Translations under genes and position numbers: made by a program
NCBI GenBank assembly: GCA_963797765.1
Contig: CAWCQU010000004.1
Span: forward strand, 444,094-508,093
Direction of reading: 5' to 3'
Length of the DNA: 64,000 nt
From: an uncultured Acidobacteriota bacterium
Lineage (GTDB): Bacteria; Acidobacteriota; Terriglobia; Acidiferrales; UBA7541
Shown: piece by piece, positions 11,945-53,562 of the stretch
Layout of the letters: each line of letters starts with the position of its first letter
Numbering within the stretch: position 1 is the stretch's first letter
The notes under the pieces: generated by a model
Databases searched by the model: none
Seen by the model: the letters and a program-made list of their open reading frames with translations, nothing else
What the model was told of the DNA's origin: nothing

Positions 11945-13324
11945 CTAATCCGGCTTGTCTGGTTTGGCCGGCTTTGCAGCCGGAGCCGGAGCGGGCGTAG
12001 GTTCCGGCTTCTGTACAATGCGCATCTGAGTTTCTATCTGTTTTTGGAGGTGCTCCATCTGCTGCGTATAAATTTGCTTCTGCAGTTGCAGGCAGGTGTC
12101 GCTCAGGATCAGCCGGATGTTTCCGGCCACCGTTCGCAGTTTCAGAACTCCACCGCCTCCGTTGAGCAAGCCTTCGGCGTGCACTACGCGGGCGCCGCCT
12201 TCGCTGCCTACGTAACTGATCTTCAAGGGGAATGCCGGATCGGCGATCACATGATGCTCATCGCCCAGTTGAATTTGCGCGTCGATGGTCAGCGGCAGCC
12301 ATTTAGGCAGGTACACCACGATGTCGCCATCGCCCGATTCCAATTCCGACGCACTGGCAAGCTTGGCTTCGGGTACGAACCATGCCGTGATTCCGCCTGT
12401 GCCGGTGGAGGCGCGCACCGGGCTTTGCACTTGCGTCAAGTAGATGCTGCCGTCGCCTGTTTCGAGCTGTGTTGGTCCCGCGAGGCGCGCCACGCGAATC
12501 CCGCCTCCGCCAGTCTGCGCGCGGATTGCGCCCCAGGCTTCGCCCACTTCGATTTGCCCGCCGCTGGTGGTGGCCACAAGTCCCGCGCCTGCGTGTTCCA
12601 GGGATACGTTGCCTCCGCCGGTATCGAGCCGCGCGATTCCGCCAACGGATCCCAGGTGTATATGGCCACCGCCCGTATGCAAGACGGCATTGTGGCCGAT
12701 TTTGCCCACGCTGATGTGTCCGCCGCCGGTGCTGACGGTGAGATCGTCCGTAACGTCTTTTACATGGATATGTCCGCCGCCCGTTTCCAGCCGCGCGCTT
12801 CCGTTCACGTTTCCGATAGTGATATCGCCGCCCGCGGTGGTGAGCAAAACGTGGCCCGACGCGTCTTCCGCGTCGATCGAGCCCGCTCCGGTGTTTACTT
12901 CCAGGCTGTACTTCACCGGAACTGTCACGTCGTAGGTAATCCACAAGTGTTCGACATCTTCGCGCCGCACGGCTTTTCCGTGCATGAGCACGCCATCGGG
13001 CAAATTCGCCACCATCACCAAAAATGTTTTGTTTTCTTTGTTGTTTGCCGGGATGGCTCCGCTTTGATCGGTTTCCACACGCACGCGAAAGCTCACTTCA
13101 TTGGTCTGCTGCATGTGAATATGTACGTCGCCCAGTTCAGTCCCGAGCTTCAGCCGCTGTCCTTCGTGCGCCGCGAGCTTTCCTGTTTTTTCTTCCAGCA
13201 GGCGCCGCTGCGAATTTCCCGGATTCAGCGAGTGGAATTTCTGTTTCCCGAACGCCGCCGGGATCAGCAATCCGCCCGCCGCCAGCGCCGCCGCAATCCA
13301 TCGAATTGGCACACGTCGATTCAT
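11945..13324 (-). CDS. DUF4097-like beta-helical protein with about 10 TGGGHIHV-type repeats, a coiled-coil and a Pro/Ala/Lys-rich tail
   Basis: Repeats such as LTTAGGDITIGNV, LETGGGHIHVKDV, VSTGGGHISVGKI, LHTGGGHIHLGSV, LDTGGGNVSLEHA. Confidence 0.75.
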   Translation of the reverse strand: MNRRVPIRWIAAALAAGGLLIPAAFGKQKFHSLNPGNSQRRLLEEKTGKLAAHEGQRLKLGTELGDVHIHMQQTNEVSFRVRVETDQSGAIPANNKENKTFLVMVANLPDGVLMHGKAVRREDVEHLWITYDVTVPVKYSLEVNTGAGSIDAEDASGHVLLTTAGGDITIGNVNGSARLETGGGHIHVKDVTDDLTVSTGGGHISVGKIGHNAVLHTGGGHIHLGSVGGIARLDTGGGNVSLEHAGAGLVATTSGGQIEVGEAWGAIRAQTGGGGIRVARLAGPTQLETGDGSIYLTQVQSPVRASTGTGGITAWFVPEAKLASASELESGDGDIVVYLPKWLPLTIDAQIQLGDEHHVIADPAFPLKISYVGSEGGARVVHAEGLLNGGGGVLKLRTVAGNIRLILSDTCLQLQKQIYTQQMEHLQKQIETQMRIVQKPEPTPAPAPAAKPAKPDKPD

Positions 13325-13356
13325 GGTGCTTGGGTTAAATATCTCCGGGATTCAAT

Positions 13357-14445
13357 TCAGTACTTTTCGCGCGGGCCCAAATCGCGGATCACCGATGCGC
13401 TTTGGATGCGAATGTAGGGATTGGAATCCTTCTCCATTCGCTCACGCAGTACTTTCAACACATTGGGATCTTCGCGAAAGTCGCCTTTTTCGGCCATGGC
13501 GCGCAGCGCGTTCATCGCTTCAATGCGCACGCCGGGATTCGAATCGTCCGCCAGCGCATCGAGAAGTGTTTTGCGGACCAGGTCCTGCGGCTCGGCGCCG
13601 TTCAATGCTTCAAGAGCTTTCAACCGAACTGCGGCATTTCCATCGGTGCGAACCGCATCGCACAGGGCCTGGCGGATGTCCGGATCGTTGCCACGAGCCT
13701 TCAAGAGTTCCACGGAATCGAGCCTCACGTCGGGGCTGAATCGCTTGTTATTGCGCAGCACGTAAAGCAGCACGCGTTTCACGTCGTTGTTATCCACCGT
13801 GCCCTGCAGCACCACCGGCTGCGCAGCATTCATCTGCACTTCGATTTTCGGCGCTTCGTTTCCGCTGCCCGGCGTCCAGTTGATTCCCGAAACGTCCGCC
13901 GAGCGCAGCGCCTGTTCATCAAACGGAAGAGTTCCCGCGGGTTGGGCGGGCATGATTCCGTTTGTCACAGAAGTGGAAACCGCTGTGGCATCCGGCCCAG
14001 GGAGCGAGTTCGCCACCCGCACCTGCTGCCGCAGCAATCGTGGCGCCAGCGTGCCCACCGAAAATCCAACTAGCACAAATAAAGTAGCGCTCAGCGCCGG
14101 GTGCAGCGCAAACCATCGTCCGGGAAAAAGAGTTTCGGACCAGCGAGCCAACACACCGCGAAATCCCGTGCGCGATTCCGCGATCTCATCAATTTTTTCA
14201 TCCAGCGCGGTGCGGCAACTTGCCAGCAGATTCGCGGGTGGCTCTTCTGTCCCTGCCGTAGCCACCACTTCCAACAGTCGTTGCTCGCCAGCCAGTGAAA
14301 TATTGCACGCGCGACAGCCGGCAACGTGAGCTTCCACTTCACTCCGTTCCTCGCGCTCCAGTTCGTCCGCGGCATACAGCACAATCCGCTGCTCGAATTC
14401 CGGGCAGGGCGCGCCTGACGATATTCCTTTTAATTCTTCCGCCAT
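13357..14445 (-). CDS. anti-sigma factor (zf-HC2) with TM helix and C-terminal HEAT/PBS-lyase-like repeats
   Basis: HVAGCRAC zinc motif, TM WFALHPALSATLFVLVGFSVG, and C-terminal repeats NAAVRLKALEALNG / NPGVRIEAMNALRAM / NPYIRIQSASVIRDLG. Confidence 0.75.
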   Translation of the reverse strand: MAEELKGISSGAPCPEFEQRIVLYAADELEREERSEVEAHVAGCRACNISLAGEQRLLEVVATAGTEEPPANLLASCRTALDEKIDEIAESRTGFRGVLARWSETLFPGRWFALHPALSATLFVLVGFSVGTLAPRLLRQQVRVANSLPGPDATAVSTSVTNGIMPAQPAGTLPFDEQALRSADVSGINWTPGSGNEAPKIEVQMNAAQPVVLQGTVDNNDVKRVLLYVLRNNKRFSPDVRLDSVELLKARGNDPDIRQALCDAVRTDGNAAVRLKALEALNGAEPQDLVRKTLLDALADDSNPGVRIEAMNALRAMAEKGDFREDPNVLKVLRERMEKDSNPYIRIQSASVIRDLGPREKY

Positions 14446-15757: not shown

Positions 15758-17899
15758 GTGCCCGTTGCTCTCGACAATCCGGTAAAATATTTGAAAGGCG
15801 TGGGCCCGCAGCGCGCCGGACTGCTGATCGAACGCGGCATCGAAACTGTGGGAGCTCTGCTCAATTATTTTCCGTTTCGCTACGAAGATCGCATCCATTT
15901 CACGCCGATCAATCAGATTCAGCCGGGACAAACGGCCACGGTCTTGGCGCGCGTCACCACTAGCGGGCTATTGTCTTATCATCGCGGCCGCAGCGCGCTT
16001 TACCATCTCGCCGTACGCGACGACACCGGGTCTCTTTACGCCGTATTTTTTCACGGCGGGTACCTGGAGCGGCGCTTCAAGACTTTGCAGCGCATCGTGC
16101 TGCACGGCAAAGTGGAAATCGATCCCTACCGCCCCGCCCGACTGCAAATGATCAATCCGGAGTTTGAATTGATCGGCGATTCCACCGGCGAAGGAGAACC
16201 CGATTCCACGGAAGTGGGCCGTGTCGTTCCCATCTATGAGGCGATGGGCAGCATCGGCTCGCGCATGTTGCGCCGGATTATCTACAGCGTGCTGCAGAAT
16301 CTTTCCTCGACGATTCCCGATCCGCTCCCGGCCGAGCTGATCAAGAGATTCCAGTTTCCGTCACGCCACGATGCGCTGATGTACGTGCATTTCCCGCCGC
16401 CGGGCGCCGATCTGGAAACGCTCAATCAATTCCGCAGCCCGGCGCATCTGCGTTTGATTTTCGAGGAATTCTTTTTTTATCAACTGGGAATCGCGCTGCG
16501 CCGCCAGCAGCATCGCGAAGAAAAAGGAATCGCCTTTCGCGTGCGCGAAGACCGCATCCGCGACGCCGTAAAGCGCATTCTTCCTTTCAAGCCCACCGGA
16601 GCGCAAAAACGCGTGCTGGCGGAAATTGTTTCCGATCTCGAGCGCCCCATCCCCATGCATCGCTTGCTCGAAGGCGACGTTGGCAGCGGCAAAACGCTCG
16701 TGGCATTCGAAGCGGCGGCTATCGTCATCGAAAATGGCTATCAGGTTTCGCTGATGGCGCCCACGGAAATTCTCGCCGTGCAGCATTATCTTTCCGCCAA
16801 GCGCATCTTCGAGCCCGTCGGCTACAAAGTGGAAATCATCATCAGCGGAATGAAGCGCGCCGAAAAAGACGCGGCCATCGAGCGCGTCCGCACGGGCGAA
16901 GCGCAATTCATCGTCGGCACGCACGCCCTGATCGAGGATCCAGTGGCCTTTGCGAAGCTCGGCCTGGTGATCGTGGACGAGCAGCATCGGTTCGGCGTGC
17001 TGCAGCGCAAGCGCCTGATCGAAAAAGGCGCGTCGCCTCACGTCCTGGTGATGACGGCCACGCCGATTCCGCGCACGCTCGCGCTTACAGTGTTCGGCGA
17101 CCTGGATCTTTCCGTGATTGACGAAATGCCGCCGGGGCGCACGCCGGTGGTCACGCGCTGGACCGGCGAAGCGCAGCTTGCCGGAGTGTGGGAATTTCTG
17201 CGCCGCGAAATCGAGCACGGCCGCCAAGCCTACGTGATTTATCCGGTGATCGAAGAATCGAAACAAGAATTAAAAGCGGCCACGGCCGAATACGAGCGCC
17301 TGGCGAAATCCGTTTTTCCAAAATTCAAAGTCGGCCTGCTTCACGGCCGGCTCAAAAGCGTGGAAAAAGAATCGGTGATGGAAAGTTTCCGCGGCGGCGA
17401 AATCCAGGTGCTGGTTGCCACCACGGTGATCGAAGTGGGCGTGGACGTGCCCAACGCCACGGTGATGGTGATCGAACATGCCGACCGCTTCGGCCTGGCG
17501 CAATTGCACCAATTGCGCGGCCGCATCGGCCGCGGCACGGAAAAATCGCAGTGCATCCTGGTGGCGCCGAAAACCGTCACGGAAGATGCGCGCGAACGCC
17601 TGGAAATCATGGTAGCTACCACTAACGGTTTTGAAGTGGCCGAAAAAGATTTACAATTACGCGGTCCGGGAGAATTTTTCGGCACTCGCCAGAGCGGCGA
17701 TCTGTCGTTCCACGTGGCGCATCCCTTGCGCGACCGCGAATGGCTCGAGCAGGCGCGCCGGCGAAGCTTTCGCGCTGGCGGAAGATTCCGCGCGCGCCGG
17801 CGAGTTAAACGGCTTGATACAGTATCTTGGCCCCGGCTGGCAAAAGAGATATTTGCTCGCGGCGGTAGGGTAGGCCAGCCGCGAGGAAGACGCGGCTAG
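15758..17899 (+). CDS. recG: ATP-dependent DNA helicase RecG
   Basis: Wedge domain N-terminus (VKYLKGVGPQRAGLLIERGIETVGALLNYFPFRYEDR), helicase motifs (GDVGSGKTLVAF, DEQHRFGV, TATPIPRTL, QLHQLRGRIGRG). The last ~45 codons are Arg-rich and an alternative frame is open there (see findings). Confidence 0.9.
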   Translation: MPVALDNPVKYLKGVGPQRAGLLIERGIETVGALLNYFPFRYEDRIHFTPINQIQPGQTATVLARVTTSGLLSYHRGRSALYHLAVRDDTGSLYAVFFHGGYLERRFKTLQRIVLHGKVEIDPYRPARLQMINPEFELIGDSTGEGEPDSTEVGRVVPIYEAMGSIGSRMLRRIIYSVLQNLSSTIPDPLPAELIKRFQFPSRHDALMYVHFPPPGADLETLNQFRSPAHLRLIFEEFFFYQLGIALRRQQHREEKGIAFRVREDRIRDAVKRILPFKPTGAQKRVLAEIVSDLERPIPMHRLLEGDVGSGKTLVAFEAAAIVIENGYQVSLMAPTEILAVQHYLSAKRIFEPVGYKVEIIISGMKRAEKDAAIERVRTGEAQFIVGTHALIEDPVAFAKLGLVIVDEQHRFGVLQRKRLIEKGASPHVLVMTATPIPRTLALTVFGDLDLSVIDEMPPGRTPVVTRWTGEAQLAGVWEFLRREIEHGRQAYVIYPVIEESKQELKAATAEYERLAKSVFPKFKVGLLHGRLKSVEKESVMESFRGGEIQVLVATTVIEVGVDVPNATVMVIEHADRFGLAQLHQLRGRIGRGTEKSQCILVAPKTVTEDARERLEIMVATTNGFEVAEKDLQLRGPGEFFGTRQSGDLSFHVAHPLRDREWLEQARRRSFRAGGRFRARRRVKRLDTVSWPRLAKEIFARGGRVGQPRGRRG

Positions 17900-17926
17900 A
17901 CAGGTTGTGGAAAAATGCACTTGGAT

Positions 17927-17986
17927 GTCATTCCGAACGAAGCGCGTAGTTTGCGTCCCGATTGTTTTGATCGGGGCGAGGAATCC
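17927..17986. repeat. REP-like nested stem-loop element, copy A (outer ATTCC/GGAAT, inner CCCGAT-tgttttg-ATCGGGG, then CGAGGAA)
   Basis: Same architecture as copies at 21571-21618, 40136-40176, 50157-50195 and 47456-47489. Confidence 0.5.
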
Positions 17987-18086
17987 AGAATAAATCCCAC
18001 GTGCCTGAGATGTCGGGATTTTCTCCATGCCTCTTCTGGAATGCCATTCCATCGCGGAGCAATTCTTGAATTTTTCCGCAAACTGT

Positions 18087-18105
18087 AAAGCCGGCCCCTA
18101 CATAG
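18087..18105. repeat. 19-nt module TAAAGCCGGCCCCTACATA, matching 50186-50205 exactly and 33487-33504 closely
   Basis: An 18/19-nt identical string sits immediately upstream of rsmD. The same module follows the hairpin repeat at 50157-50195. Confidence 0.45.
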
Positions 18106-18119
18106 GCGCGAAGAAAAAG

Positions 18120-21504: not shown

Positions 21505-21570
21505 TTTCGGCTCGGCTTGCGAACAACAATTATCGCTAAGCACTCCCTTCTCGTGTCCACACGTATCCCC

Positions 21571-21618
21571 GTCATTCCGACAGAGCCCCGATGCCGTTTC
21601 TCGGGGCGACGAGGAATC
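21571..21618. repeat. REP-like nested stem-loop element, copy B (GTCATTCCGAcagagCCCCGAtgccgtttcTCGGGGCGACGAGGAATC)
   Basis: Between the convergent tonB-like and aminotransferase genes. Shares GTCATTCCGA...CGGGGCGAGGAATC with copy A. Confidence 0.5.
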
Positions 21619-21685
21619 TCCTTACCATTCCCACCGCACACAAAAATGAGAATCCAGGCGGACTCAAACAACTCACTCGGTTCTT

Positions 21686-30230: not shown

Positions 30231-30731
30231 ATGAATGTGGAATTGGTGATTGCTGCGGCTACTGATGAGGAGCGTGAGTGGGCAGCGCGCTTGATGGCGG
30301 GAACTGATCCGTGGATCCGGTTGGGGAGGGATTTGGAGCGGTGCCGAGTGGTTTGCAATGACCGCGAGGATTTATTGTACATCGCACATTTGAAGGATGA
30401 GGCTTGCGGGTTTTTGTTGATGCGGAGGCGCGGGGTGGCGGGGGCTCCTTATATTGTTTCGCTGGCTGTGCGAGAGGATTTGCGGGGGACGGGAGTGGGA
30501 TCGAGGATGCTGGAATTTGCGGAGGATTTTTTTCGGGGGGAGTCGCGGAATATTTTTATTTGCGTGTCTTCGTTCAATGGGAGGGCGCGGGAGTTGTATG
30601 AGCGATTGGGATATTTAGTGGTGGGGGAGTTTAAGGATTACATTGTTGACGGGGAGTCGGAGTTTTTGTTGTGGAAAGGGCTTTACCGCAGAGACGCTGA
30701 GGGCGCGGACGGAAGGAGAACGGGAAGATGA
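30231..30731 (+). CDS. GNAT family N-acetyltransferase with atypical codon usage (G/T-ending codons)
   Basis: Acetyl-CoA binding motif VSLAVREDLRGTGVGSRML. Codons GGG/GTG/TTG/GAG/TTT dominate, unlike the GC3-rich neighbours. Confidence 0.75.
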   Translation: MNVELVIAAATDEEREWAARLMAGTDPWIRLGRDLERCRVVCNDREDLLYIAHLKDEACGFLLMRRRGVAGAPYIVSLAVREDLRGTGVGSRMLEFAEDFFRGESRNIFICVSSFNGRARELYERLGYLVVGEFKDYIVDGESEFLLWKGLYRRDAEGADGRRTGR

Positions 30732-30895
30732 TTCGGGGGGGGCGGAAGAAAAAAAAGAAAGAAAGAAAAGGAACCGGAGAGATTCTTCGGGCCGGTCTTC
30801 GGCCCTCAAAATGACAATGGTGGGATTTTTGCGGGATGCCATTAAGGCTGGGAGTGCCCTTGAGATTGGAGTAGGTGGGACAGCCTAAAGGCCGT

Positions 30896-30946
30896 CCCCA
30901 CTAAAAACTTGGAGCCTCGCCTGCCGGCATCGGCGGGCGAGGCTCT
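30896..30946 (-). terminator. Terminator for the SPFH gene: GAGCCTCGCC-N11-GGCGAGGCTC then CAAGTTTTTAG, followed by a second GTGGGGACGGCC/GGCTGTCCCAC hairpin
   Basis: 10-bp perfect stem immediately after the stop codon at 30947-30949, with a T5 run downstream on the minus strand. Confidence 0.6.
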
Positions 30947-38007: not shown

Positions 38008-38045
38008 TTGAGAAAAAGCACACAGCCAGGAGTGGCTGTGCTACT
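38008..38045 (-). terminator. Rho-independent terminator of the dnaJ-hspR transcript: AGCACAGCCActccTGGCTGTGTGCT then TTTTT, overlapping the hspR stop codon
   Basis: Minus-strand hairpin followed by T5. The same hairpin sequence recurs at 53531-53552. Confidence 0.6.
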
Positions 38046-39700: not shown

Positions 39701-40081
39701 CTACAGCTTGGCCCAACGCGCGTTTAGCTCGGACAGCTCCTGCTGCTCGCGCGCAAGATCCTCGCGGCGCTGGCGCTGCTCTTCCGAGCGAACGCCCATG
39801 GCCGCTTCTTTTGTGTTCGCTTTTTCGATCCAGCCGTCGACCCAGGCCACTTTTTGCTCGACGCTCGCGGAGTCGGAGCGAAAACGGAAAAACGTGCCGG
39901 AAATTTCTACCGAGCGTGGCGGAAAATCGGGTGGCGTATCACGCTGCATGTCGTAAAACAGACGGCGCCAGTCGGCGCTGGGTGATTCCGAAATCTGGAC
40001 CTGAATCAGATAATAATTGTCGCGAACTTTTTGGACCGCCTGCGGCGCACTAACCCGCCGAATACCGGTTGTCGTCGTCAA
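39701..40081 (-). CDS. hypothetical protein (126 aa) with a C-terminal coiled-coil, in the position where grpE would be expected
   Basis: TTG start with a GGAGAG SD. Protein-like composition, ...EEQRQRREDLAREQQELSELNARWAKL. No GrpE similarity is apparent. Confidence 0.5.
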   Translation of the reverse strand: MTTTTGIRRVSAPQAVQKVRDNYYLIQVQISESPSADWRRLFYDMQRDTPPDFPPRSVEISGTFFRFRSDSASVEQKVAWVDGWIEKANTKEAAMGVRSEEQRQRREDLAREQQELSELNARWAKL

Positions 40082-40135: not shown

Positions 40136-40176
40136 GCCGCCCTCCCGACAGAATTCGTCGGGCGAGGAAGGGCAGC
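40136..40176. repeat. REP-like nested stem-loop element, copy G (GCCCT-CCCGACagaattcGTCGGG-CGAGGAAGGGC)
   Basis: Inner 6-bp hairpin plus the CGAGGAA tail; outer GCCCT/AGGGC pairing. Confidence 0.45.
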
Positions 40177-40203
40177 GCTACACGACCCCTATGACTTAGC
40201 AGA

Positions 40204-40395
40204 CTAGTTTACGAATTCCGGCGAGCAGCGGTGCTCCGCCGCGTGCGCTTTCAAACGGATCAGAGCCAAAATTCCCTGTTTTTTCAGTTCTGTCTGTTCT
40301 CCAGGAACCGGTTTTTCCACGCGAGCAAGGTCAAGCTCTCGTGAGCGGATTCCGATGAGGTTCAATTCGAGTTGTCTATATTCAGGGCAAATCAT
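40204..40395 (-). CDS. small hypothetical protein (63 aa; ATG 40395 after AGAAGGAAAA)
   Basis: MICPEYRQLELNLIGIRSRELDLARVEKPVPGEQTELKKQGILALIRLKAHAAEHRCSPEFVN. Good SD; the longer track ORF beginning at 40533 is unlikely. Confidence 0.4.
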   Translation of the reverse strand: MICPEYRQLELNLIGIRSRELDLARVEKPVPGEQTELKKQGILALIRLKAHAAEHRCSPEFVN

Positions 40396-40649: not shown

Positions 40650-40713
40650 CCGGAGCTTCCCGATCGAACACATCGGGACACAAACCGCGCGGAAGCTCCG
40701 ACCCCCTAAAAAC
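40650..40713. repeat. Conserved motif copy S3: nested hairpin (GGAGCTTCC[CCCGATcgaacacATCGGG]...GGAAGCTCC) plus GACCCCCTAAAAAC
   Basis: Starts 5 nt downstream of the dnaK stop (40718). Confidence 0.5.
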
Positions 40714-45007: not shown

Positions 45008-45129
45008 GCCTACCCCGGCTAATCCCGAAGTCTTAATAAGCCATAACCGTGCCGGCCTGAAGGCCGGCGCTACATTGCATTTCCAGTTGATTGCGCGGCG
45101 GAGTAGAATGCCGCGTTCCCTTGGAGGAT

Positions 45130-47399: not shown

Positions 47400-47455
47400 G
47401 GCGAGCCTGAATCGAGGCGGCAGCTGTTCGTGGGGGACATTGAACTCTGGATCCC

Positions 47456-47489
47456 TCGTCCCGGTTAACAACATCGGGACGCAGAAGGC
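47456..47489. repeat. Possible degenerate REP-like copy H (GTCCCGgttaacaacaTCGGGAC-GCAGAAGG)
   Basis: Inner hairpin and a CGCAGAAGG tail that resembles CGAGGAA. Confidence 0.3.
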
Positions 47490-47860
47490 GCGCTGACGCT
47501 CGGGATGACACCATGAAGACATGTGACGCTGCGGATTCACAAGTTCAACGCCTTAACGGGTAATCCGGTTTTCAAAACATGAAAATTTGAATTCGCGCGG
47601 GGATGCGATGCAGTCTTCAAGCCCGCGTATCCAAGGTTTGCAGAGAGCCTTGATCGCCGCGATCCATCGTCGATCGCGGCTTGGCATCCCAACCCAAAGG
47701 CCATCAAGATTGTTTGGGCTAGCGGCACTTCTGGAGTAGTCTCAGGTCGGAAATTCCAGTCCGCCAGCGGATGGGGCAATTGGAACGACTTGTGTCACCG
47801 ATTCCGTGGAACCTCCGACAGGCCCGGTGAGTCTAATCCGAATAAGGATGAATCGAAACA

Positions 47861-50142: not shown

Positions 50143-50205
50143 AAAGAAAAGGGCGCGGCTCCCCGATAAAATTCATCGGGGGCAGGAAAGCCGGCCCCTA
50201 CATAC
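50115..50205. repeat. Composite repeat: R3 module (GGGCGCAGCCCTGCGAGGCTCAGGGTAGA), then REP-like hairpin copy F (CCCCGATaaaattcATCGGGGG-CAGGAA), then the AAGCCGGCCCCTACATA module
   Basis: Joins in one place the modules that occur separately at 33455-33505, 39624-39670, 17927-17986 and 18087-18105. Confidence 0.5.
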
Positions 50206-53473: not shown

Positions 53474-53562
53474 GGCGGGGGTAGCACAGGCACTCTTGCC
53501 TGTGTAATTGAACACGCGGACAGTAAAACCACACAGCCAGGAGTGGCCGTGCTACTTGAAAA

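Follow-up and report, generated by a model that had tools for sequence, protein, structure and literature searches.

Hairpin repeats in an Acidobacteriota genome segment probably form two tagged REP families, one of them apparently related to Ssn motifs

Introduction

Short nested hairpins lie between the genes of a 64-kb window from the genome of an uncultured soil acidobacterium (the window being the whole stretch of DNA analysed here). What kind of repeat do they represent, do they form one family, and which enzyme would act on them? The first-pass annotation described a single REP-like family of five copies, one of them degenerate, with the consensus CCCGAY-N7-RTCGGG(G)-CGAGGAA. The evidence presented below suggests that the flagged hairpins probably belong to two tagged REP families with a common lineage-specific tip, namely an Ssn-type family (copies A, B, E and F) and a GTAG-tagged family (G, H and the 45051 copy).

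Hairpin repeats in the window

Sequence inspection of the window revealed hairpins as described at all five sites, and all copies are intergenic. The five sites are flanked by unrelated housekeeping genes (recG/rsmD, tonB-like/aminotransferase, the dnaK-dnaJ spacer, DPP-IV/yceI and ICMT/oxidoreductase), which rules out an origin as a by-product of gene paralogy. The inner hairpin CCCGRY-N7-RYCGGG was observed five times in the window against 0.26 expected, and none of 100 shuffled sequences contained five or more. Thus, the window hairpins are real, non-random REP-like repeats. No T-run or U-tract follows any of the copies, in agreement with the earlier exclusion of intrinsic terminators.

The nested structure was recovered by RNA folds, but individual z-scores were weak. 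The predicted ssDNA folding energies of the elements were likewise unremarkable (z from -0.4 to -2.8), folding free energies being a poor discriminator for hairpins this short. Integron attC sites, CRISPR repeats, hammerhead-like three-way junctions and K-turns were dropped on anatomy alone, given the lack of an array and of matching core motifs and the dispersal among housekeeping genes. Rfam covariance models gave no match at the gathering score across the whole window and only noise around copy A at E up to 10. A literature text search with the repeat sequence string returned unrelated primer matches only.

The view of a single family had to be abandoned. A shell tagged with (T/C)GTC is common to copies A, B and E; it is absent from G and H, which have a TGTAG head instead, on the minus strand. 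The proposed consensus joins the variable tip to one half of the true shell and lumps two differently tagged REP families. Its count of five was also incomplete, since F (30779-30816, minus strand), an "empty" copy (45051-45073, minus strand) and a half copy (18085-18105, minus strand) are present in the same window. The REP-like designation is retained for dispersed intergenic palindromes, but not in its specifics (consensus, single family and the partner enzyme of A, B, E and F).

Anatomy and conservation of the shell elements

The window contains the following shell elements:

Copy A, 17926..17987, plus strand: TGTC shell, long form, between recG and rsmD
Copy B, 21570..21620, plus strand: CGTC shell, between convergent tonB-like and aminotransferase genes
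Copy F, 30779..30816, minus strand: missed by the first-pass annotation, between convergent GNAT and SPFH-domain genes
Copy E, 47448..47510, minus strand: TGTC shell, long form, between DPP-IV and yceI

All four share the arrangement (T/C)GTC-AT-xyz-GA-[variable tip]-GA-z'y'x'-AT-C, in which the outer shell is the conserved unit and the inner hairpin is the variable tip. Copy A has the layout TGTC-ATTCC-GA-[ACGAAG + GCGC-N7-GCGT hairpin + CCCGAT-N7-ATCGGG hairpin]-GA-GGAAT-CCA, and copy F the layout TGTC-ATTTT-GA-[GGGCCG-AAGAC-CGGCCC]-GA-AGAAT-CTC. The sequence common to A and B (GTCATTCCGA...CGAGGAATC, with the outer stem ATTCC/GGAAT) had been recognised correctly, and the tip of B is a single hairpin, CCCCGA-N9-TCGGGG. 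The copy at 47456-47489, previously taken for degenerate, is actually E, which occupies 47448-47510 on the minus strand, has its full length of 63 nt, can be aligned with A from end to end over 60 nt and has a compensatory outer stem (ATCCC/GGGAT) and the same two-hairpin tip. The tag is TGTC in A, E and F and CGTC in B, and the tail is CCA in A and E and CTC in B and F. None of the four copies has lost GTC, the GA/GA mismatch or the 3' C, and all of them start their stem with A-T, T-A. Copies A, B and F are oriented like their upstream gene and E is antisense to both neighbours; the genes flanking the window copies are unidirectional or convergent (0 divergent).

Turnover of the tip is evident at orthologous sites in related contigs. 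The A ortholog in L199 (about 90% nucleotide identity) is a 25-nt short form, GTCATTCCGAACGAAGTGAGGAATC, at the same place, with a precise 34-nt indel inside the loop. Orthologs of B were found in L199, L200 (two in tandem) and L201, and their tips differ, with an extra nested palindrome in the first L200 copy and in L201; one of the L200 tandem copies carries a perfect CCCCGAT-N7-ATCGGGG. In some B orthologs the shell is partly decayed and, therefore, individual copies may be neutral. At the E site, the element of L334 (YceI 94% identical) is a short form, GTCATCCCGAGCCCGCGAGGGATC, that of L336 is degenerate and differs in its tip, and L333 and L340 lack an element. L197 represents the same strain (99% identity) and is uninformative for gain or loss.

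The shell is widespread in environmental contigs. In IMG/VR, exact matches to the 25-nt short form GTCATYCYGA-GCGAAG-CGARGRATC were found at 76 loci, and long forms occupy at least 120 loci. The short form comprises five Watson-Crick pairs, two G·A pairs and two Watson-Crick pairs round a 3-nt loop. Tips are 17-42 nt long in the window copies and range from 5 to over 80 nt in the family. The commonest tip is GCGAAGC or a GNA-loop variant of it (GCGTAGC, GCGCAGC, ACGAAGT, GCCGAAGGC), and the GCGAAGC-type tip shows compensatory changes in both of its pairs.

The stem of the shell covaries strongly. The three variable stem positions were fully Watson-Crick in 276 of 298 shell candidates from protein-selected loci, with about 1.6% expected by chance. 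Among 38 distinct short forms, 97.7% of cells were paired and double compensatory changes occurred in five of the seven pairs; their covariation score was reached by none of 500 shuffles, and slid controls were 17-52% paired. A relaxed scan, which allowed mismatches at the "fixed" positions, returned 141 matches versus 0 in shuffled loci. In these matches, it is mostly the two initial stem pairs that vary, and they do so in a compensatory manner (A-T to G-C eight times, T-A to C-G nine times). Three changes affect the GTC tag and one the G·A/A·G mismatch, and the 3' C is never altered. Across the wider family, GTC is preceded by T in 75-89% of copies and by C in 6-17%, and the majority 3' tail is C-TC. 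The distribution of G·T versus C·A favoured the tag strand by 14 to 2 in protein-selected loci, an asymmetry that was not seen in the pattern-selected viral set.

A second family with a GTAG tag

Other repeats belong to a different type, represented in the window by three complete copies and one half copy:

Copy G, 40136..40181, minus strand: GTAG-C-GCTGCCCT-[TCCTCG + CCCGAC-N7-GTCGGG]-AGGGCGGC
Copy H, 50151..50201, minus strand: GTAG-GGGCCGGCT-[TTCCTGC + CCCCGAT-N7-ATCGGGG]-AGCCGCGCC
45051 copy ("empty"), 45051..45073, minus strand: GTAG-C-GCCGGCCT-TC-AGGCCGGC, missed by the first-pass annotation
H-type half copy, 18085..18105, minus strand: TATGTAGGGGCCGGCTTT, identical to H over 18 nt, 3' arm absent

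On the minus strand, G, H, the 45051 copy and the element at L333:7253 can be aligned with a TGTAG head common to all, albeit in a small sample, and the stems of G, H and the 45051 copy covary (GCCCT/AGGGC, GGCT/AGCC, GCCGGCCT/AGGCCGGC). Judged from these sequences, these three copies probably make up another REP family, whose minus-strand GTAG tag makes an analogy with REP/RAYT systems plausible. Copy G sits in about 75 nt of spacer that is absent from the syntenic L333, and the H site in the syntenic L340 is a 31-nt spacer with no element. At the locus of the 45051 copy, the element of L333 is the same except for a 25-nt inner-hairpin module inserted at the tip. A search of IMG/VR for the G/H hairpin returned one match, in coding-like sequence lacking the surrounding structure, which was judged to be due to chance. 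A generic scan for GTAG plus a hairpin gave fewer matches in the window than in shuffles, this filter being too permissive for statistics. The window also contains a third GTAG-tagged REP, including an inverted doublet.

The inner hairpin as a tip module

The inner hairpin recurs in both families and in one further element:

Inner hairpin, 17957..17975, strand not applicable: CCCGRY-N7-RYCGGG, tip module common to both families and S3
Further inner-hairpin copies: 21587-21606, 40144-40162, 40659-40677, 47460-47478 and 50162-50180
S3, 40650..40702, minus strand: outer stem GGAGCTTCC/GGAAGCTCC round the two-hairpin tip of A and E

As noted before, S3 also holds the inner hairpin; it has no valid tag or tail and lies within about 190 nt of spacer that is absent from L333. 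The module was seen on TGTC-tagged shells (A, B and E being counted here), on GTAG REPs (G, H and L333:7253) and in S3, in some cases with a GCGC-N7-GCGY hairpin in front of it. Close relatives differ in whether they have the module at three orthologous sites. Thus, the inner hairpin is a lineage-specific tip module which is gained and lost between close relatives. An unlikely extension of this finding is that the module (CCCGAY-N7-RTCGGG + CGAGG) might be a discrete unit of 25-35 nt copied into the apical loops of pre-existing hairpins of any family. If true, it would represent either a "hairpin-in-hairpin" parasite or a side product of nuclease cleavage and repair by template switching at tips, and copying into hairpin tips would be a mode of sequence spread undescribed for REPs.

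Association of the shell with a GIY-YIG nuclease gene

Among 80 metagenome loci fetched by GIY-YIG protein alignment (protein similarity alone), a shell lies within 250 nt of the gene for a GIY-YIG protein of about 100 aa in 71 and on both sides of it in 52. Shell density reached 10.35 per 10 kb in the GIY-YIG loci versus 0.02-0.07 in control loci. Near these genes, neighbouring shells within 150 nt were inverted in 92 cases versus direct in 35, and the window copies are all singletons. In the acidobacterial relative L331, which is syntenic with the window at dnaK-ORF-dnaJ-merR-istB, the GIY-YIG gene is bracketed by two shells. The GIY-YIG clade comprises more than 3,500 environmental protein clusters.

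The lead to this protein came from one weak match to an E. coli YhbQ probe and was then confirmed independently by Pfam, the associated protein matching PF01541 with E=3e-12. No match was found in PDB or NCBIfam, and an IMG/VR locus search with a single protein returned the query's own contig only. A tblastn search revealed a 94-codon ORF of N. gonorrhoeae (E=9e-17) embedded in seven exact NTS repeats. Pairwise BLASTP to the gonococcal protein, the ortholog sequence being taken from two chromosomes filed as plasmids, showed 43% identity (E=1e-25) with invariant Tyr/Tyr/Glu positions. Repeats also accompany other homologs: canonical CGTCATCCCCGCGAAGGCGGGGATCCAG pairs flank the A. lipoferum homolog, tandem-GA shells flank the Planktothrix homolog, and related copies occur beside homologs in a cyanobacterial plasmid and beside a protein named as from Verrucomicrobiae. 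The 64-kb window itself has no GIY-YIG gene and its 940,369-nt source contig is absent among the best 120 homologs of the GIY-YIG protein P0061; therefore, the elements here could be orphans.

Evaluation of alternative explanations

The possibility of chance GC-rich hairpins in a genome of 58% G+C can be regarded as refuted. It would account for the weak individual folding z-scores and for the generic GTAG scan, which was poorer in the window than in shuffled sequence; it is contradicted by the excess of inner hairpins (5 versus 0.26 expected), by the alignment of A and E over 60 nt, and by the relaxed scan with 0 matches in shuffled loci. Moreover, the further copies and covariation on which the first-pass annotation had made its proposal depend were both found, in the form of hundreds of shells elsewhere with strong compensatory covariation. 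We also consider it improbable that a RAYT spread and maintained all of the copies as classical REP/BIME elements. Such an origin would suit dispersed intergenic palindromes with an unpaired tag, the GTAG head on the minus strand of G, H and the 45051 copy and the third GTAG-tagged REP with its inverted doublet, and Y1-transposase classes are known in Acidobacteria (PMC6006769). However, the tag of A, B, E and F is (T/C)GTC rather than GTAG, and in a published survey CGTC REPs were without an adjacent tyrosine transposase (PMC3733652). The GIY-YIG gene adjoining the shell in 71 of 80 protein-selected loci also contradicts a RAYT for these four copies.

Tandem G·A pairs are common in RNA, and the elements might act mainly as RNA, namely as 3'-UTR stabilisers, processing sites or terminators devoid of a U-tract, with the shell serving as an RNA-protein motif. 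The orientation of A, B and F like the upstream gene, the nested structure in RNA folds and the bias of G·T/G·U wobbles to the tag strand (14 versus 2 in protein-selected loci) fit this explanation, as do the exclusively unidirectional or convergent neighbours, which have been taken as a sign of transcription (PMC3733652). It is nevertheless quite unlikely, since E runs antisense to the genes on either side, no Rfam family was detected in the window or, at E up to 10, around copy A, the U-tract is absent, and the strongest conservation falls in unpaired flanks beside a DNA nuclease gene, with SsnA ignoring an RNA site (PMC11893778). In addition, orthologous copies are decayed or missing in close relatives, which argues against a gene-specific regulatory role.

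Proposed nuclease partner and mechanism

We therefore favour two tagged REP families, in which A, B, E and F appear to be a variant, new for Acidobacteriota, of CGTC-tagged REPs and Ssn-related motifs, because the shell is widespread and covarying, keeps a fixed tag and lies beside a GIY-YIG gene homologous to that of SsnA. Gene neighbourhood and homology point to a small GIY-YIG nuclease, a homolog of Neisseria SsnA, and not to a RAYT, as the probable partner enzyme of A, B and E (and possibly F). The elements would then be single-strand-DNA hairpin repeats consisting of a 5' tag, a stem, a tandem G·A/A·G, a free tip and a 3' C(C/T)(A/C) tail. Binding and cleavage by the nuclease of this clade are inferred from published Neisseria and Wolbachia enzymology. 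By analogy with SsnA, the cognate enzyme of about 100 aa would bind the tag strand folded up in single-stranded DNA, reading the 3' C and the stem for binding and GTC for cutting, and would nick a few nucleotides upstream. The tip may be irrelevant to recognition, which would explain its quick turnover. The nuclease gene bracketed by shells could represent an IS-like unit and the likely source of shell spread.

These results would extend the Ssn/hairpin-repeat system, which was characterised in 2025 mainly in Proteobacteria, to soil Acidobacteriota and to a very large environmental clade. The predicted recognition hairpin of this clade differs in architecture by its tandem G·A mismatch, its GNA mini-hairpin and its nested tips. 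Since this variant escapes the published search expression, current abundance estimates may be too low. The natural variation provides a mutagenesis-like map, with covarying pairs and a fixed tag, G·A pairs and 3' C, which could guide the engineering of ssDNA nucleases with new specificities. For annotation, the repeats described here account for many of the spurious short ORFs and broken assemblies of soil metagenomes.

Comparison with known systems

The commonest shell tip is exactly GCGAAGC or a GNA-loop variant. Biophysical work by Hirao and co-workers in the 1990s reportedly identified d(GCGAAGC) as an extraordinarily stable DNA mini-hairpin; to our knowledge, it has not been linked to shell repeats. 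GTAG-tagged REPs and REPINs associated with RAYTs were reportedly described by Nunvar (2010) and by Bertels and Rainey (2011). Like these elements, G, H and the 45051 copy combine an unpaired GTAG head with a GC-rich palindrome behind it, whose stems covary; GTAG is the tag typical of RAYT-associated REPs (PMC3733652). They differ from them in that only three and a half copies were seen, two with an inserted inner hairpin and a 6-7-nt bulge.

The CGTC-tagged REP superfamily (Di Nocera, De Gregorio and Rocco 2013, BMC Genomics, PMC3733652) has a CGTC or TGTC tag, an AT stem start, a stem of 8-9 bp with at most one mismatch, a loop of 4-5 nt (exceptional loops in some species) and a 3-nt tail close to CCA, and occurs predominantly as inverted dimers. 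The A, B, E and F copies resemble it in their tag, AT start, 3-nt unpaired tail and intergenic location between unidirectional or convergent genes. In contrast, the shell has five Watson-Crick pairs, two G·A pairs and a variable tip, which place its stem and loop outside the published ranges, and the four window copies are singletons. CGTC REPs were reported from Proteobacteria, Chlorobi, Bacteroidetes, Spirochaetes and Thermotogae (PMC3733652), and Acidobacteria are absent from these phyla.

The Ssn-related motifs (NTS/dRS3 in Neisseria) and the GIY-YIG ssDNA nuclease SsnA were described by Chenal et al. (2025, Nat Commun, PMC11893778). SsnA acts on ssDNA only and on the tag strand only, requires 3 nt upstream of the palindrome for cleavage and the C just after it for binding, does not bind an RNA version of its site, and tolerates loss or extension of the loop (PMC11893778). 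Unlike these motifs, the shell stem continues after five pairs into a conserved tandem G·A/A·G mismatch, its commonest tip is a GCGAAGC-type GNA mini-hairpin, its long forms nest hairpins of 17-42 nt or more, and its hosts here are Acidobacteriota. The expression HGTCWYN(0-2)YYVSBRHN(0-5)WNVSBRGN(0-2)RNCYNB recognises the NTS positive control but none of the short forms and none of copies A, B, E and F. As in Ssn-related motifs, an unpaired HGTC tag immediately precedes the hairpin of the shell, the stem of which starts with A-T, T-A; an invariant C comes right after this hairpin, and the tip is free to vary. At the family level, shells likewise bracket a single-domain GIY-YIG gene of about 100 aa, whose 3' end overlaps the downstream copy, and the encoded protein is an SsnA homolog (43% identity, E=1e-25) within the published limit of E<1e-10 (PMC11893778).

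Hairpin repeats in the window

The first-pass annotation had grouped five nested hairpins into one family. The hairpins are present at every position it gave, and the window contains five instances of the inner motif CCCGRY-N7-RYCGGG, where 0.26 would be expected; none of 100 shuffles had as many. A search of Rfam matched no family. The genes adjoining the copies are mutually unrelated housekeeping genes (recG, rsmD, a TonB-C protein, an aminotransferase, dnaK/dnaJ, DPP-IV, yceI, a type III PKS and an FAD oxidoreductase), which rules out an origin of the repeats as by-products of paralogous genes. The grouping into a single family did not hold, as the frame GTC-AT-xyz-GA...GA-z'y'x'-AT-C is absent from two of the copies, G and H. 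A script requiring this frame, referred to here as the shell, found exactly four tagged copies in the window, one of them (F) new.

Shell copies in the window (frame scan)
17926-17987, plus strand: copy A
21570-21620, plus strand: copy B
47448-47510, minus strand: copy E
30779-30816, minus strand: copy F, new, with an unrelated hairpin (GGGCCG-AAGAC-CGGCCC) as its tip

Copy E had been regarded as degenerate (47456-47489), but its minus-strand reading is a full-length counterpart of A (TGTCATCCCGA...CGAGGGATCCA versus TGTCATTCCGA...CGAGGAATCCA in A) with the outer stem altered on both arms, from ATTCC/GGAAT in A to ATCCC/GGGAT in E. A homopurine run on the plus strand, GGGGGGGGCGGAAGAAAAAAAAGAAAGAAAGAAAAGG (30730-30780), directly adjoins copy F, and a terminator-like (intrinsic) hairpin with a T-run lies 3' of the SPFH gene (~30895-30945, minus strand). 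In all four copies (at 17.9, 21.6, 30.8 and 47.5 kb) the tag is on whichever strand is richer in C locally. GC skew ranges from about zero to negative values over ~10-24 kb (+0.01 in the bin of A), where A and B have their tags on the plus strand, and is positive above 24 kb, where F and E have theirs on the minus strand. If skew reflects replication, the strand cuttable by the nuclease discussed below would avoid the lagging-strand template, which is only a hint from four copies and is confounded by gene orientation.

Copies G and H, read on the minus strand as (A/G)TGTAG-(C/G)GC-palindrome, form a second, GTAG-tagged REP family together with an 'empty' copy. The outer stems of the G/H family covary, and a putative REP-associated tyrosine transposase (RAYT) is a plausible partner. 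A third REP family, GTAG-CACAG(C/G)CACTC(C/T)TG(G/C)CTGTG, is also present in the window.

GTAG-tagged copies in the window
45051-45073, minus strand: 'empty' copy of the second family, GTAG-C-GCCGGCCT-TC-AGGCCGGC
18085-18105: half copy of the second family
38021-38044, minus strand: third family
53481-53504, plus strand: third family
53532-53555, minus strand: third family

The last two copies form an inverted doublet (53481-53555) with tags outward and a 27-nt spacer, an arrangement that can be likened to a REPIN; CACAGSC-N6-GSCTGTG has two exact matches in the window against 0.00 expected. At the position of the 'empty' copy, the syntenic relative L333 carries the same element with a 25-nt tip insert, TCCTCGT-CCCGAT-N7-ATCGGGA. 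Read on the minus strand, the S3 element encloses the two-hairpin tip of A and E in an outer stem of another kind, and such tips were also found in unrelated viral-labelled contigs. The spacer DNA around G, S3 and H is missing from syntenic relatives. Thus, the inner hairpin noted earlier is real, but since it is seen in shells, in the GTAG family and in S3, it represents a common tip module of three kinds of outer hairpin and not the core of one family.

Covariation and conserved bases of the shell

The 25-mer GTCATYCYGA-GCGAAG-CGARGRATC matched 76 exact loci in IMG/VR, where long forms of the shell gave over 120 matches. The most frequent tip is GCGAAGC, with variants GCGGAGC, GCGCAGC, ACGAAGT and GCCGAAGGC, and the flanks (T at -1; T, C at +1, +2) are mutually non-complementary. 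Of 474 shell matches, 392 show full complementarity at the three variable positions, a condition that the search patterns never imposed, and in loci chosen by protein alone the triplet is fully Watson-Crick in 276 of 298 candidates, with six triplet types. Across 38 different short forms, pairing holds in 97.7% of cells, with double compensatory changes in five of seven pairs; the covariation score was reached by 0 of 500 shuffles, and slid controls drop to 17-52%.

The tag, the AT pairs, the GA/GA mismatch and the C had been kept constant in the first search expression, so the scan was relaxed to permit two mismatches at these positions, giving 141 matches versus none in shuffled loci. The variation was nearly all compensatory and located in the first two stem pairs, whereas there were three changes in GTC, one in the G·A/A·G mismatch and none at the 3' C. 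The pairing, compensatory changes and relaxed scan therefore show that paired shell positions are constrained by structure and the unpaired or non-canonical ones by sequence, a pattern mirroring the mutagenesis of SsnA, a Neisseria GIY-YIG nuclease (PMC11893778).

Orthologous sites in relatives

A 940-kb contig of an ENA metagenome assembly matches the window, and orthologous rsmD loci put the window in Acidobacteriota/Terriglobia, near 'Ca. Acidiferrales'. At site A, the closest relative (L199, ~90% nucleotide identity) carries a 25-nt short form, GTCATTCCGAACGAAGTGAGGAATC; a clean 34-nt indel within the loop separates it from the window copy. The recG-rsmD spacer (17874-18112, ~240 nt) exists in these two only, and the genes abut in L200-L203. 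This spacer is a mosaic of shell A, a hairpin AAATCCC-N16-GGGATTT (~17992-18021) and the half GTAG-type REP; rsmD probably starts near 18114, versus a long ORF call from 18027. At site B, four genomes retain both the shell and the inner hairpin's base but have differing tips, and some shells have decayed. One of these genomes (L200, ~13290-13434) shows a tandem duplication of the shell with ~45 nt of 3' flank (GCACGCAAAAATRAAAATC...), and since this flank is conserved in all four relatives, the repeat unit there may be larger than the hairpin. At site E, a short form stands exactly in place of the long form in a relative whose YceI is 94% identical. The tip is different again in a 78% relative, and more distantly related genomes have no element. 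These comparisons show that the element base is retained while the tip turns over fast, and that individual copies are gained and lost.

In the ENA assembly of the same organism (L195/L196, contig_4901), dnaK and DPP-IV are split (331 aa; 479+235 aa); in the window they are intact ORFs of 680 and 705 aa, and contig_4901 probably carries indel errors. Two small ORFs between dnaK and dnaJ (39701-40081, 126 aa, and ~40204-40395, ~63 aa, both minus strand) had no match in a Pfam search. They are positionally conserved (both in L333; a 127-aa ORF only in L331) and are probably real genes of the dnaK operon.

A GIY-YIG gene beside the shells

On a viral contig (L065), two shells flank a GIY-YIG ORF (PF01541, E=3e-12), whose protein family comprises 3,597 clusters (E up to 1e-5), most of them of 100-111 aa. 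In 80 metagenome loci retrieved by protein alignment alone, a shell lies within 250 nt of the gene in 71 and on both sides in 52, usually with one shell ~55-80 nt upstream and an inverted one overlapping or just past the stop codon. Shell density was 10.35 per 10 kb in GIY-YIG loci, compared with 0.62 in the window and with 0.07 and 0.02 in two sets of control loci.

The acidobacterial contig L331, syntenic with the window across dnaK-ORF-dnaJ-merR-istB, carries a GIY-YIG gene that is preceded by a short-form shell and overlapped at its 3' end by a shell with a hairpin tip. Such genes run into the downstream inverted shell (L331 10313-10352, L332, alignments A5/A8), and translation of GATTCTTCGCTTCGCTCAGAATGA gives C-termini such as ...RDSSLRSE*, which puts the stop codon within the repeat. 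Likewise, in N. gonorrhoeae the repeat dRS3 overlaps the 3' end of ssnA. In the two acidobacterial contigs L331 and L332 (10001-10351 and flanks) the gene occupies one shared place, by an RNase E/G-rodA-pbp2-mreD-mreC(-mreB) cluster, which suggests a stable, vertically inherited (domesticated) location rather than a freely hopping element.

A tblastn search of a plasmid collection matched two N. gonorrhoeae chromosomes (E=9e-17, 45% identity, 92% coverage, 94 codons). Seven exact NTS repeats surround the matched ORF, which identifies it as the ssnA locus. The acidobacterial and gonococcal proteins align end to end (43% identity, E=1e-25), and the Tyr, Tyr and Glu mutated in PMC11893778 are invariant. 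Homologues from A. lipoferum and Planktothrix (59% identity) are flanked by canonical CGTC REP pairs and by tandem-GA shells, respectively.

Relation to published systems

The anatomy, covariation, conservation of tag, G·A and 3' C, tip turnover, GIY-YIG association and SsnA homology are shown directly by these data. The finding is real, but most of it is accounted for by a system known from papers of 2013 and 2025. CGTC-tagged REPs, which include Neisseria dRS3, have no associated transposase, permit TGTC, and have stems starting with AT and a 3-nt tail near CCA (Di Nocera et al. 2013, PMC3733652). SsnA, a 94-aa nuclease acting on ssDNA only and on one strand only, binds and cuts NTS (CGTCATTCCCGCGMAVGCGGGAATCYRG), an extended dRS3 (Chenal et al. 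2025, PMC11893778). Cleavage needs the three bases preceding the palindrome and binding the C directly after it, the loop tolerates removal or extension, and ssn genes are usually bracketed by their own motifs (PMC11893778). In Neisseria, the system limits transformation by NTS-bearing DNA. The requirements for the three bases and the C, with a free loop, predict the conservation pattern of the shell. By the published enzymology, the tag strand would fold once single-stranded, and the nuclease would bind the stem and the 3' C and would cut a few bases 5' of GTC. By analogy only, the repeats may have spread from an IS-like unit, shell-ssn-shell.

The published expression for the Ssn-related motif (SRM; Chenal 2025) matches NTS but no shell form, the window copies have stems and loops outside the ranges that the 2013 survey gives in its Table 1, and the phyla of that survey do not include Acidobacteria (PMC3733652). 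The shell is therefore a variant of the SRM/CGTC-REP kind and not a plain member, and the new elements are its hairpin architecture, the host phylum, the miss by the published search expression and the shared tip module.
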